Origin: a virus | UHGV virus genome: UHGV-1394528 | Strand: one strand, 5' to 3' | DNA length: 32,702 nucleotides | Part shown: positions 25,179 through 30,492 of the stretch, piece by piece | How the letters are laid out: the number at the start of each line of letters is the position of its first letter | Position numbering within the stretch: the first letter of the stretch is position 1 | Position numbers and translations under genes: made by a program | The notes under the pieces: generated by a model | Told to the model about the DNA's origin: nothing | Seen by the model: only the letters and a program-made list of their open reading frames with translations | Databases searched by the model: none

Positions 25179-25227
25179 ACGCCAGTTGCATTCACATAGC
25201 GCCCCGCAGGACGCTATAGGCTTGCTA

Positions 25228-25871: not shown

Positions 25872-25942
25872 AATGCACCTCTTTGATTGGTTGTTTAGGT
25901 AATTACTTCACATAGCACCCCGTAGGATGCTATAGGCTGTAA

Positions 25943-26140
25943 TTATCGACCAAATTGGGAGTTAACAGTAGGCCATCCAGATGGCTGCCTGCTACTGCCC
26001 TTTTGTTTTTGCTTTCCCCTCACCCTGTGCTCACTGCTCAACCCTTGTTTGCTAGGCTTCACAGTAAGCGGCACGTCGTCGGTGGGATTCAGTGATAATT
26101 GCATATTCCGCCGTAATGCTAAACGCTTTGATTTGCGCAT
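25943..26140 (-). CDS. possible small basic protein, 65 aa
   Basis: Track ORF with good SD (GAGAGG, 8-nt spacer) but low-complexity R/K/S-rich sequence; may be non-coding leader. Confidence 0.25.
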   Translation of the reverse strand: MRKSKRLALRRNMQLSLNPTDDVPLTVKPSKQGLSSEHRVRGKQKQKGSSRQPSGWPTVNSQFGR

Positions 26141-26490
26141 ACTCTTACCTCTCAGAGAACATAATCTAGCGCAACCTTGTTACTGCTGCGCTATGTTATA
26201 TGCTCTTTGCGGGATACACTCCGCGCCTTGTTCCCTCGATTCAGAGGAGCGAGCTGCTCTCGCCTCGACAGTGTGGTTTGTCTCAGAACCCCGGTGATAA
26301 CGTCCGGCACGTTTACTCTTTAACTGATTGTCTAGGGGTGGGTCGTCAACGTACCAGTCAAGGTACTGGGCCTCCCCGCAAACCAGCTTACTACTAAACC
26401 TTTAAGAGGTCATTTTTAACGTCTAGCCTAATCCGACGGGACACACATCCTTGCGCCCTAGAGTGGTTATCCTTGCCTTGTTCGCTATCT

Positions 26491-26519
26491 AAGTTACTCA
26501 GTGAATCAGAACTTGTCAA
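26491..26519 (-). promoter_or_regulatory. candidate sigma70 early promoter (downstream of tandem pair)
   Basis: Minus strand: -35 TTGACA (26519-26514), 17-bp spacer, -10 TAACTT (26496-26491). Confidence 0.35.
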
Positions 26520-26559
26520 GCGTTTATTTCTTACTGCCTTACTGCTTACTTCGGGATTC

Positions 26560-26588
26560 AATCTAGCTTATGTTCTTCGCGGTGTCAA
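26560..26588 (-). promoter_or_regulatory. candidate sigma70 early promoter (upstream of tandem pair)
   Basis: Minus strand: -35 TTGACA (26588-26583), 17-bp spacer, -10 TAGATT (26565-26560). Confidence 0.4.
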
Positions 26589-26740
26589 CTCTTTTTATTG
26601 AGTGTCTAACCCTTCACACTATCTAGCTTTAATCCGGCTGAATCTCCCGACTCTGCCCCGGTTAGCGCCTCAGTGCCTCCCGGTGATTGAACTATAGCCC
26701 TATTGAACCAAAAGAAGCAAGTACTTTTTTAAACTTTTTA

Positions 26741-27157
26741 TCACCGGGAGCAAAAAGAGTAAGCAGACCCCCAAAGGTCTGCGTGCAGTAAACTATTGTA
26801 GTCCCCATAAGTCACGTCGAACTCTCGCCAGTTAGTATCGTACTCAGGACTAGCCAATAACTCATCCTTTGTGAAGCATCTCCCTTCCTGAATCTGTGCT
26901 AAGTGTATGGCCCGGTGAGTGTCAGCGCTAACCAGTATCAGGTTATTGAAGTCACAGTTAAGGCGGTTACTGTCACAGTGATGTACGTGATAGCCAGAAC
27001 CGTAGCTAGTGATTCCCAGAGCATCCATAACCACGGCCCTATGCAGCGCCACAGTCTTATAGTCTCTCTTACCTCGCTTATTCACATACTCAGGCCCAGC
27101 ACCATTAATCACTGGATAACCTTCCTTATCAACCACAATCTTAAATGTTCTAGCCAC
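26741..27157 (-). CDS. HNH endonuclease
   Basis: HVHHCDSNRLNCDFNNLILVSADTHRAIH (H-N-H core); GTG start with SD AAGGAG. Confidence 0.7.
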   Translation of the reverse strand: MARTFKIVVDKEGYPVINGAGPEYVNKRGKRDYKTVALHRAVVMDALGITSYGSGYHVHHCDSNRLNCDFNNLILVSADTHRAIHLAQIQEGRCFTKDELLASPEYDTNWREFDVTYGDYNSLLHADLWGSAYSFCSR

Positions 27158-27399
27158 AACAATATCTCCTTACATAGTGATTAGTAGCGTAACCATAGCG
27201 ACGATATCCCGGAGGGATAGGAGCGGAGGTTACAAGATTCTAGGTAATGCTTCCCTCCCTACGGTCAGTCATACAGGGCATTACTAGGGGATACTAGTGA
27301 CTACTAGTGAGTAGTAGTAAGTAGTGTGTATATAGTGCCCTAAAACCCTCCTACTCCTGTAACATCATTTCATGACAGCTTTCGAATGAAAGTAAGAGC

Positions 27400-27830
27400 A
27401 AAGGGATAGCAAAGAGATAGCGCCGGGATAGTGTTGGGTGAGGATGTGCGCCCTAGTGGGGAGCGCGCAGCGTAGCATATAATCGGCACAATGTAAAGCA
27501 CTAGGGATAGCCAGTGGATAGCCTAGTGCATACTAGGGATAGCACCGTGACGCACTACAGCGCACTAGGCAGGCCCACTATGGCCCCACAATGCAGGCAC
27601 TAGGCGGGCCCACTATGGACGCGCAAAATAAGCAAGGCAGAGCGCACCCCTACGGCCCACAGGGAGCGCACAGGGATAGCCCCTAGTGCCCCGTAGAGCG
27701 CACAGGAGCCACTCAGTGCCACGCACAGGCCAAGCCGTGGGGCAGCACTAGCGATAGCCCCAGCGCAGCGCAGGGAGCCACTGAGGCCCTCTGAGGCTTC
27801 CGCTATAGCCACGGTCTTAGCTGCCGTGGC
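27400..27830. repeat. repeat-dense CTAG-rich non-coding region (iteron-like GGGATAGC copies, 24-bp tandem repeat, short palindromes)
   Basis: At least 7 copies of (G)GGATAGC-like octamers (27403, 27414, 27425, 27504, 27516, 27536, 27673, 27751); direct repeat gcactaggcRggcccactatggMc at 27562-27585 and 27597-27620; GAGCGCAC x3. Confidence 0.6.
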
Positions 27831-27979
27831 GCTCCACACCTCAGAGAGCGCCCTAGGGCCGTCTAGACGTCTAGGCACCCACCCCACCCCTCCTTTTATG
27901 CGCTAGGCACCCCCTATGGGGGCAATTGGCGTCGTTGAGGGTGAGGGAGGCTCAAGGGCGAGTATAATAATTTTTGGTT

Positions 27980-28441
27980 TCAGATATACACCTGCCCCGG
28001 GGTGAAGGCCTTGTGTTGCTCTTGACGTTTCTCTAGTACCCACTTGCAGATAACTTCGTAGGAGCTGTGCTTCTTCATGTAACGCTTACCGTCCTTCCAG
28101 AACTCCCCGCGCCAGCAGGTGCCAGTGTAGTATACACCCCTAGGATGTTCCCGCTTAGACCTGCGTGCGTTACAGTTGTTTTCGCTAACCGTAGCTAAGC
28201 GCAGGTTCTCTAATCTGTTGTCACCGGGGTTTTGGTTGATGTGGTCCACCACATATCCGTCTGGAATAGGCCCGTTGTGTAGTTCCCAGATGAGGCGGTG
28301 TGCCTGTATCTTTCTACCAGATACCTGTACCACCCAGTAGCCACGAGTGTTGCGGGTACCCGCTGGAGCACCGGCGCGCCTACCCTTGAGCCACACCAAG
28401 CAGCTAGGGGATGTTGTGTCATATTTGATGTTCATAGACAT
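27980..28441 (-). CDS. HNH homing endonuclease (HNH_3/AP2-like)
   Basis: AHRLIWELHNGPIPDGYVVDHINQNPGDNRLENLRLA; paralog of the HNH at 2699-3175. Confidence 0.8.
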   Translation of the reverse strand: MSMNIKYDTTSPSCLVWLKGRRAGAPAGTRNTRGYWVVQVSGRKIQAHRLIWELHNGPIPDGYVVDHINQNPGDNRLENLRLATVSENNCNARRSKREHPRGVYYTGTCWRGEFWKDGKRYMKKHSSYEVICKWVLEKRQEQHKAFTPGQVYI

Positions 28442-28536
28442 ATCCTCATTTTAAAGTCTAATAAATTTCAGGTCCAGGTATAGACGTGCACCCCAGCAGT
28501 GCCCCGGGATACCGTAGAGATACCCCAGGGAGCTAC

Positions 28537-30492
28537 TTAGAGATACACCTCCCATGCTACCTGGGATACGTCCGCTGCGTTACTGCTCCTAATCACGAAG
28601 CTGTTTAGGTCCGGATTAGGTGTAGGCACATCCTGGTTCTGAGCTACGCCAGTAACCGTCAAGGCCCCAGCACTAGAAGGAAAGGTCAACCGCGTCAACT
28701 TAACCTCAGACACCCACTTGAAGGAGTTAGCTACGCTGCCAAAGTTTCCGCGTACACGGGCGTTGACTGTAGCCTCACCAGCCACCAGCGTTGCCACTCC
28801 ACGGATACCTGTGTCATCCAGTAAGTTCCTGGACATGCGCGGAGGCGTAGGTTGAACGGTGTAGCCGCTCAGCAATGCCCAGAACAAGCCGTGACCGGTC
28901 ATGTCGTTATTGGACATAGATACCAGGGTAGGGTCAATGCCCATAGTCCCGTGGAAGTACACAGCTCTCCCGGTACCGTCGTAGCGCATGCTCACGCCAT
29001 CAATCTCCAGGGATGTCTGCGCTGTCTCAGCTACGTCCTTAGTGACGAAGATGTGAGAGCTGGAGTTGCGGGTGTACCGACCACCCTTAACACGGCCCCC
29101 GTTGATTCGCACACCATTCTGGCTACCGTGAGCCTCGCAGTCATAAACGTAGCCACCGCCGTACGAGCAGTTAAAGCCAGAGCGTACGTTGTCATAAGCT
29201 AGGCACTCCCTATAGATAGGGAAGGCTACACCGGTGTTGGAGGCGAACCCGTCCATAGCTGCACGGTAAGCTCGACAGTTCAAGTACTCCACCCCGTTAG
29301 TGCGCGCTTGGAACCCATCGTCAGCACTGTCGTACGAAACGCAGCGAACGAACTTCACACGCTTACCAATGTCATGAGTATCAAACCCAGCTTGGGTTGT
29401 GCTGTAGGCTTCGCAGTTAACGCCTAAGAACTCGATAGGCTCCCCCCATTTGTCCCCGTCTGCAGTGCTCTGCCAGTTCAGAGAGATTGCGTGGCGTACG
29501 TCCATGGCGTGGATATCGTGTACTTCCGTGTCCTCTGAGCAGCCGAGCACCTCTACCCCGTACCATCCGATGTTGTAGAAGCACGTACCCTTAACGGTAC
29601 TATCTACGCAGTTATTGAACTTGATAGCACTACGCCCTTCTATATCAGAAGCCCCGGGGCGTTTGTTGCCAATAATAACCCCGTCCTGGATGTGCAAGTC
29701 CGCGGCAAAGTTGGCAGAGATACCGATAGTAAAGAACCGGTTCAAATCGTCGTAGCCGAACTCGTTGATGTACGGGGATACTAAGGTTACGTTCTCCACC
29801 ATTGTCGGGATACCTACTTCCGCGGCATCAGACAGGTAGTAGTTATAGTGCAGCGCTTTATCCAGCCGAATACTGGTGACGCCACCGGAGGTGCTAACCC
29901 CCACCACTTTCCTAATCTGGGAAATCTTTACACCGTAGGTGTTAGGACCACCATCACACAGCTTGTTAGAGCGAAGATACAAGTACGTACCTTTTACCGC
30001 AGACAAAGCCCCGGCAGCCACCGTAATGACTTTGCTGCCCGCTGTGGCATCCGCCGCTAACGGGACGAATGCCGAGGGTGCCGAGCCGATAATGTTAAGC
30101 ACTTGACGTGCAACCGAGGCATCCGGCAGGATTCTTCCGGTATCAGTAAACTCCAGCGTAGAGTTGCTTTTGATGTTGAGCACACTCGTGGCCTGCAGGA
30201 CTGTGTCCACAACCAGGTGCCTATTAGGTGCGCTCATGAACGTTACTATGCCCGCCCAATTGCTGAACCAGGAGCTGTATGCCGGACCCACGAATTTACG
30301 GAGTAGATACCCACCAGGTACAGCAAACACAGTTCCGTTATCCACTACCGACGCGGCAGTAGTAAAGGTGAAGTCCCCACCGGCGCTGCCCAGCAGGATA
30401 ATCTTGTCCTGTACCTGAAAGTTTGGATATGCTACCATGCTCGCCAAGTCGGAGAATACCCGCTCTGGAGCTACTAATCTAATTAACGCCAT
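28537..30492 (-). CDS. tailspike protein, probable polysaccharide depolymerase with beta-helix
   Basis: 651 aa; Gly/Asn/Ser/Thr-rich with periodic hydrophobic residues and scattered Cys/aromatics typical of parallel beta-helix depolymerases; ATG follows endolysin stop directly. Confidence 0.7.
   Translation of the reverse strand: MALIRLVAPERVFSDLASMVAYPNFQVQDKIILLGSAGGDFTFTTAASVVDNGTVFAVPGGYLLRKFVGPAYSSWFSNWAGIVTFMSAPNRHLVVDTVLQATSVLNIKSNSTLEFTDTGRILPDASVARQVLNIIGSAPSAFVPLAADATAGSKVITVAAGALSAVKGTYLYLRSNKLCDGGPNTYGVKISQIRKVVGVSTSGGVTSIRLDKALHYNYYLSDAAEVGIPTMVENVTLVSPYINEFGYDDLNRFFTIGISANFAADLHIQDGVIIGNKRPGASDIEGRSAIKFNNCVDSTVKGTCFYNIGWYGVEVLGCSEDTEVHDIHAMDVRHAISLNWQSTADGDKWGEPIEFLGVNCEAYSTTQAGFDTHDIGKRVKFVRCVSYDSADDGFQARTNGVEYLNCRAYRAAMDGFASNTGVAFPIYRECLAYDNVRSGFNCSYGGGYVYDCEAHGSQNGVRINGGRVKGGRYTRNSSSHIFVTKDVAETAQTSLEIDGVSMRYDGTGRAVYFHGTMGIDPTLVSMSNNDMTGHGLFWALLSGYTVQPTPPRMSRNLLDDTGIRGVATLVAGEATVNARVRGNFGSVANSFKWVSEVKLTRLTFPSSAGALTVTGVAQNQDVPTPNPDLNSFVIRSSNAADVSQVAWEVYL

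Follow-up and report, generated by a model that had tools for sequence, protein, structure and literature searches.

The region around positions 27160-27980 of the window (the whole 32,702-nucleotide stretch of virus genome UHGV-1394528 analyzed here) is very probably the concatemer junction of a Drulisvirus genome, carried in a circular-type or permuted assembly in which the right unique arm, one copy of the direct terminal repeat (DTR), and the left unique arm follow one another. The predicted DTR is a 307-bp segment present in a single copy on the minus strand at 27640-27946, with boundary motifs identical to those of phage fHe-Kpn01 and 10 other annotated DTRs. The initial annotation had placed the packaged genome termini and a DTR within 27160-27980, which agrees with the match of the motifs at 27946 and 27640 to these 11 repeats; its reading of the window as a permuted or concatemer-junction assembly is likewise supported, by the single DTR copy between right-arm and left-arm sequence. 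DTR ends of this architecture are standard and documented for the genus, and are in that respect already known.

The window is assigned to Drulisvirus, the KP34-like Klebsiella podophages (Autographiviridae, Slopekvirinae; T7 supergroup). About 250 GenBank phage records were matched by BLAST, nearly all of them Klebsiella phages of the genus Drulisvirus, and the closest overall relative has about 95% identity and the same gene order. All long ORFs lie on the minus strand, as do all features described below, and gene identities were obtained from PHROG and Pfam family searches. Along this strand, the C-terminus of the terminase large subunit (32648-32301; the C-terminal 115 aa lie inside the window and match terminase PHROGs) is followed by genes for a spanin (31733-31329), an endolysin (31101-30493), a 651-aa tail fibre/spike (30492-28537), and a 153-aa HNH endonuclease (28441-27980; PHROG phrog_99, E = 2e-46; Pfam PF13392, E = 3.9e-22). 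An 822-nt non-coding gap (27979-27158) then separates the late module from the early region. The first ORF past it encodes a second HNH endonuclease of 138 aa (27157-26741), a gene found in AttikonH4, VKV295, phi1_066009, and MC07C and missing from fHe-Kpn01. Downstream of this gene comes the first host promoter published for the KP34 group, TTGACACCGCGAAGAACATAAGCTAGATT (PMC4411677), which has an exact match at 26588->26560, so that the succession of HNH gene, promoters, and early genes proposed earlier for the far side of the non-coding DNA was recovered. The early genes come after the second HNH gene in minus-strand order; two sites, 25937->25907 and 25221->25191, carry the KP34-group “phage promoter” motif, a family-A DNA polymerase is encoded at 17699-15288, and a single-subunit RNA polymerase at 8847-6379. 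Terminal repeats are not mentioned in the genus-defining paper (PMC4411677).

The late genes had been described as running directly into about 0.8 kb of repeat-rich non-coding DNA. The gap at 27979-27158 is indeed non-coding and rich in repeats, but the 153-aa HNH gene at 27980-28441 intervenes after the tailspike. The only sizeable ORF in the gap (27887-27600; 95 aa, GTG start) matched neither a PHROG nor a Pfam family, and most relatives show the similarity to it broken over two or three frames; without a family match or a conserved frame, it was rejected as a gene. An Rfam scan of 26000-28600 at E <= 1 returned no match. Hexamers seen at least five times occupy 57 positions in the gap, compared with 1.4 +/- 2.6 (maximum 12) in dinucleotide shuffles and a maximum of 11 in the window’s 36 equal-sized coding tiles, and statistics for 7-mers and 8-mers are consistent with this result. 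The recurrent motifs are strand-specific, occurring on the minus strand only: GCTATC[CT] six times, CC[AG]TAG[GT]G five times, and CTGTGCG three times. In a unidirectionally transcribed genome with its own RNA polymerase, the last late gene is here separated from the early region by a non-coding segment without a frame-conserved ORF. A simple scan for sigma-70 promoters and terminators found nothing inside the region that exceeded shuffle background; its sole promoter-like matches were the published host promoter at 26588 and a site at 28476 that falls within the upstream copy of a sequence block described below.

The limits of the predicted repeat were drawn from 11 Drulisvirus relatives with annotated DTRs (fHe-Kpn01, KpV71, KpV475, KpV48, AttikonH1, AttikonH4, Dlv622, Kp_Pokalde_001, JKT6, VKV295, and KPPK108.1), for most of which both ends were fetched. 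Their records have an exact repeat of 181-311 bp at each end, and in five of those with both ends fetched the left copy matches the right one without a difference across the annotated length. The best characterized is fHe-Kpn01 (MN380459), which has a 222-bp DTR and blunt ends according to PhageTerm, restriction analysis, Sanger sequencing, and ligation-PCR (PMC7291057). Both fHe-Kpn01 boundaries align exactly to window positions 27946 and 27640, although its ends were measured and those of the window are deduced by homology. In 8 of the 11 relatives the left DTR boundary falls exactly at CCTCACCC (CCTCACCCT); it is 1 nt off in two more, and VKV295 is an outlier. The right boundary lies exactly after GCGCTC in 6 of the 11, followed by TGCCTTGCTTATTTTG or a near variant, and is 1-3 nt longer in four. 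Furthermore, when the gap, or the repeat alone, was used as the query, base 1 or 2 of at least 13 distinct GenBank Drulisvirus records aligned to window position 27946, while in other records, e.g., NTUH-K2044-K1-1 and Dlv622, the last base aligned to 27640 or no more than 2 nt from it. Of the remaining GenBank records of the group, most are arbitrarily permuted.

Both boundary motifs are complete in the window. At the left boundary the minus strand reads TATACTCGCCCTTGAGCCTC and then CCTCACCCTCAACGACGCCAATTGCCCCCATAGGGGGTGCC, with the break between 27947 and 27946; at the right boundary it reads GGGCCGTAGGGGTGCGCTC and then TGCCTTGCTTATTTTG, with the break between 27640 and 27639. The left genome end, or first packaged base, is accordingly predicted to be 27946 (...GCCTC followed by CCTCACCCTCAACG...), and the last DTR base, which would be the right end of the virion DNA, is predicted to be 27640 (...GTGCGCTC followed by TGCCTTGCTTATTTTG...). 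Together these boundaries give a DTR of 307 bp at 27640-27946. Conservation, scored in a 15-sequence alignment of junctions, reaches 0.82-0.90 at 27901-27940, where it forms the left boundary peak, and 0.89-0.91 in a 40-mer at 27621-27660 (CTGTGGGCCGTAGGGGTGCGCTC followed by TGCCTTGCTTATTTTG) that spans the inner DTR end and coincides in part with a weak stem plus T-run resembling a terminator (27653->27637). The DTR interior is hypervariable, with conservation of 0.14-0.36 at 27800-27900 and, at about 27875-27897, an interrupted G-tract that in relatives is a plain run of 8-13 G. This hypervariability accounts for the spread of DTR lengths in the genus (181-311 bp). The window’s own interior is substantially unlike that of any relative, and the 307-bp length therefore rests wholly on the two boundary motifs.

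The possibility that the junction lies here and the DTR limits differ from 27640-27946, the true repeat being shorter, has to be considered in this light. The annotated 181-bp DTR of VKV295 starts at CCTAGCGCAT, equivalent to window position 27908 and 38 nt further in, the annotated 244-bp DTR of KPPK108.1 ends 86 nt before the common boundary, and PhageTerm-type annotations of the right boundary scatter by 1-3 nt in several relatives. However, VKV295 looks atypical: its record does not contain the otherwise universal sequence block that precedes the left terminus, and a truncated tail-fibre ORF of 202 aa extends into its right repeat. The majority of repeats, including the experimentally mapped one, share the exact left start, the commonest right end is the GCGCTC boundary, and conservation in the window peaks at both motifs. 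A shorter repeat with other limits is therefore considered unlikely, and the limits 27640-27946 are retained.

Beyond its boundaries, the predicted DTR resembles those of the genus in lying between the tailspike, which an HNH gene may or may not follow, and the early region. The shared features are a left boundary of …CCTC followed by CCTCACCCT, a right boundary of …GCGCTC followed by YGYCTTRC.TATTTTG, a conserved block 45 nt upstream, and the palindrome CCCCCATAGGGGG. It differs in its length of 307 bp, compared with 181-311 bp and a hypervariable interior across the genus, and in the HNH genes flanking the region at either side, neither of which is present in fHe-Kpn01.

A second copy of the 307-bp segment was not found in the window, and the window’s two ends do not overlap. 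The one copy present has right-arm genes on one flank and left-arm sequence on the other. A single copy is expected both for a concatemer junction and for a collapsed circular-type assembly, which sequence alone cannot separate, and the choice between a genuine junction and assembler collapse of two terminal copies is irrelevant to the conclusion. Another sort of assembly artefact, a chimeric join of contigs or of related phages that brings together arms adjacent in no real molecule, might be suspected from the mosaic flanks, as no single GenBank record spans at least 80% of 26000-29000 at high identity. Yet the order of right arm, block, repeat, and left arm is identical in many independently assembled permuted or circular relatives, and mosaicism at the tailspike and HNH genes is expected in the genus, which makes such a join exceedingly improbable. 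Cos-type cohesive ends were also considered and were rejected, given the exact 181-311 bp repeats at both ends of relatives and the blunt ends of fHe-Kpn01.

Immediately ahead of the predicted left end lies a pre-terminus element (27947-27998), composed of a core at 27991->27961 and a 14-nt spacer (...CGCCCTTGAGCCTC) and ending at the left cut site. Its conservation is 0.65-0.70, compared with 0.31-0.36 directly upstream, and the block, GT.TATA.CTG.A...AAA.TT.TTA.ACT, starts exactly 45 nt ahead of the left-end motif in all 11 genomes (11/11). The window contains only two copies of the block, 28485->28455 and 27991->27961, which bracket the HNH gene at 27980-28441. The upstream copy (variant A, 28455-28485; GTCTATACCTGGACCTGAAATTTATTAGACT) lies just 5′ of the HNH gene start and is identical to the junction-proximal copy (variant B) at 27 of 38 aligned positions. 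Because the HNH gene is bracketed by two block copies, an intact copy is kept at a fixed distance from the cut site. The gene, which probably encodes a homing endonuclease, is an insertion, found in some relatives only, that separates the tailspike gene from the terminal repeat; at this site it is absent from AttikonH4, fHe-Kpn01, AttikonH1, and KPPK108.1 and present in JKT6, whose record ends 33 nt past the HNH stop codon, exactly at the predicted junction. The pre-terminus element is a candidate cis signal for terminase or for end formation.

Inside the predicted left end, a 13-nt palindrome, CCCCCATAGGGGG (C5-ATA-G5), is located at 27910-27922, its first base being nt 25 of the predicted genome. 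No other copy occurs in the window, where 0.03 chance matches are expected, and the palindrome is invariant or nearly so among Drulisvirus relatives; a full-text literature search for the palindrome sequence returned no papers. T7 belongs to the Studiervirinae and Drulisvirus to the Slopekvirinae. The T7 genome (NC_001604) starts with TCTCAC, with CCCCCATAGGGGGTACCTA from nt 26; the corresponding sequences of the window’s predicted genome are CCTCAC at the start and CCCCCATAGGGGGTGCCTA from nt 25. The two genomes also have a common layout, in which the last late gene, the repeat, short-repeat arrays, host promoters, and early genes succeed one another. In T7 the 160-bp terminal repeat is flanked by arrays of the short repeat CCTAAAG, whereas the units in the window are GCTATCC and CTAGTG/CCATAG, and there is no sequence homology between T7 and the window beyond the first ~40 nt. 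In the 45 nt upstream of the T7 junction no evident likeness to the Drulisvirus block was seen (by eye, over 30 nt). The T7 polymerase pause signal ATCTGTT, which directly follows the T7 repeat, is absent from the window region; it is speculation that the conserved TGCCTTGCTTATTTTG, at the equivalent position, plays a similar part. Degenerate versions of the palindrome occur at the same offset as in the window in SP6 (NC_004831; TCCCCATAGGGTGCC) and phiKMV (NC_005045; CCCCCGTAGG), which like the window are Autographiviridae with DTR-type ends (414 bp in phiKMV). These two phages are much less similar to the window, have repeats of other lengths, and lack the Drulisvirus boundary motifs.

Downstream of the repeat on the minus strand, toward the early genes, several short elements alternate. 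Two units of about 30 nt (CCATAGTGGGCC.GCCTAGTGC...; 27562-27626) are spaced by 35 nt and 87% identical, and in relatives their copy number differs through whole-unit insertions or deletions. These are followed by about 3.6 copies of GCTATCC(C)TAG with an 11-bp period (27505-27543), also variable in copy number among relatives. A candidate host sigma-70 promoter (27469-27497), TTTACA-17 nt-TGcTACGCT, has the region’s highest conservation (0.93-0.96); its hexamers are nearly invariant in 15 sequences and fall below the threshold of the simple scan, and its promoter function is put forward as an inference only. A second 11-bp GCTATC array (27397-27432) behaves as a variable-number tandem repeat, with about 10 units of CAGCGCTATCC in RCIP0037. 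Further along, a conserved block holds both a CTTTC-ATTC-GAAAG inverted repeat and TTTAGGGCACTATATAC (27328-27344), a sequence conserved in relatives that we take to resemble the SP6 promoter core. As a recurrent phage promoter TTTAGGGCACTATATAC was rejected for now, since it occurs once in 32.7 kb even with three mismatches allowed. Ten-bp tandem repeats of ACTAC/CACTAGTA (27292-27325) again vary in copy number among relatives, and a conserved hairpin (27240-27287), with the outer stem GTAATGC/GCATTAC, shows compensatory changes: GGATAGC/GCTATCC in MC07C, GTATGTC/GACATAC in JKT6, and GTATGGC/GCCATA in fHe-Kpn01.

Variable arrays of this type have been described near other T7-like termini. In Yersinia T7-like phages, 10- and 12-bp repeats and homopolymer tracts are found inside the terminal repeat (TR), and 11-34 repeats lie between the TR and the first promoter (PMC5923468). 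The variable copy numbers in Drulisvirus, in these Yersinia phages, and in the T7 CCTAAAG arrays reflect an analogous organization, not sequence homology. The short-repeat arrays downstream of the DTR, together with the conserved promoter-like sequences there, are assigned to the early control region.

Conserved promoter-like sequences and iteron-like 11-bp repeats would also be found if the whole region were an intergenic control region only, with early promoters and origin-like repeats, in a phage that packages by headful or has its ends elsewhere, the late-early junction then arising from circular permutation. Headful packaging is difficult to reconcile with the first and last bases shared by independent records (at least 13 records; 8 of 11 repeats with the same start nucleotide), with the blunt, fixed ends shown experimentally for a close relative, and with the T7 terminal signature at the left end. 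A control region devoid of genome ends is therefore regarded as highly improbable, and the concatemer junction remains the preferred explanation.

Under that explanation, the virion DNA would be linear, reading on the minus strand from 27946 (CCTCACCCTCAACG...) to 27640 (...GGGGTGCGCTC), with the segment 27640-27946 (307 bp) at both ends. During infection, genomes would be joined head to tail via one shared repeat copy. Terminase-dependent maturation would then cut at the two conserved boundaries and the repeat would be duplicated, so that each packaged genome would have two copies. Concatemers of the T7 group are formed via shared terminal repeats, and duplication of the TR is needed on packaging, as half of the concatemer DNA would otherwise be unpackageable (PMC5923468). 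For the chemistry of cutting and duplication this model relies on published work; what the present analysis contributes is the homology, the conservation of the boundaries, and the finding of a single copy. The cis signals for end formation are likely to be the 45-nt pre-terminus block, YCTCAC with the CCCCCATAGGGGG palindrome, and the right-boundary 40-mer, roles suggested by fixed spacing and conservation. More tentatively, YCTCAC, the palindrome, and the rigid 45-nt block might constitute a family-wide cis signal for end formation or repeat duplication, of a kind undefined outside T7/T3, and in that case the adjoining HNH gene could be a homing element directed at the region of the packaging signal.

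For the genome itself, these results indicate that the sequence should be re-opened at 27946 on the minus strand with a 307-bp repeat at each end, which would add 307 bp to the true genome length and correct the gene numbering. More generally, with the two conserved boundary motifs Drulisvirus termini can be called to the nucleotide from sequence alone. This is useful in a therapeutically relevant genus for which many deposited genomes are arbitrarily permuted. Finally, the terminal signature is deeply conserved with T7, and offers a modest lead on how terminal repeats are duplicated in podoviruses.

The interior of the terminal repeat in the relatives carries a G-run of variable length (8–13 G) that follows AATTTA or ATAAAA, and its counterpart in the window (27875–27897) is interrupted, reading GGAGGGGTGGGGTGGGTG. 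Homopolymer length likewise varies in the terminal repeats of Yersinia T7-like phages (PMC5923468). The repeats of two relatives deviate as deposited. The VKV295 genome (OR287807) has neither the pre-terminus block, the conserved element 45 nt before the left cut site, nor the 38 nt with which the repeat usually opens, and its right terminal repeat overlaps a truncated tail-fibre ORF of 202 aa; VKV295 is either a deletion variant still able to package or a case of faulty deposited ends. In KPPK108.1 (OK583892), the annotated 244-bp repeat stops 86 nt short of the boundary in the other relatives, although the conserved boundary motif does occur in the left arm, beyond the annotated repeat end.

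Short repeats and promoter-like motifs also occur in and near the non-coding region. The 11-bp unit CAGCGCTATCC (27397–27432) behaves like a variable-number tandem repeat, with two to three copies in the window versus approximately 10 in RCIP0037. Its 11-bp period sets the sites along one face of the DNA helix, a spacing that resembles iterons and other binding-site arrays. The sequence TTTAGGGCACTATATAC at 27328–27344 is conserved among relatives and is similar to the SP6 promoter core, TTTAGGTGACACTATAG. No further copies were found in the window with 3 mismatches tolerated, and as the sole copy TTTAGGGCACTATATAC may therefore be a lone phiOL-like promoter, or a coincidence. The 31-nt KP34-group motif GCCTATAGC.TCCT.CGGGG.GCTATGTGAA is present in two copies on the minus strand (25907–25937 and 25191–25221); it was published as a "putative phage promoter," and the authors further proposed that it might mark single-strand nicks (PMC4411677).

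A conserved minus-strand hairpin (27240–27287) has a 7-bp outer stem whose sequence differs among relatives while complementarity is kept (GTAATGC/GCATTAC, GGATAGC/GCTATCC, and GTATGTC/GACATAC). Possible readings are a DNA structure or an element of the early leader that serves in RNA processing or attenuation. The first ORF past the non-coding region is a second HNH_3 endonuclease gene (26741–27157, minus strand), which AttikonH4, VKV295, phi1_066009, and MC07C also carry and fHe-Kpn01 lacks. Because this gene lies upstream of the first host promoter in the published set (26588->26560), its transcription requires some unannotated promoter, possibly the candidate TTTACA-17-TACGCT (27497->27469).

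The left cut site comes 33 nt downstream of the other HNH_3 endonuclease gene (27980–28441, minus strand), which is flanked by two minus-strand copies of the pre-terminus block (28455–28485 and 27961–27991). The copies have diverged from each other, with 27 of 38 positions identical, and the downstream one is overlapped by the final codons of the gene. Only some relatives, such as JKT6 and RCIP0037, have an HNH_3 gene at this site, and this patchy distribution suggests that the gene is a mobile insertion that would have left an intact pre-terminus block beside the terminus.
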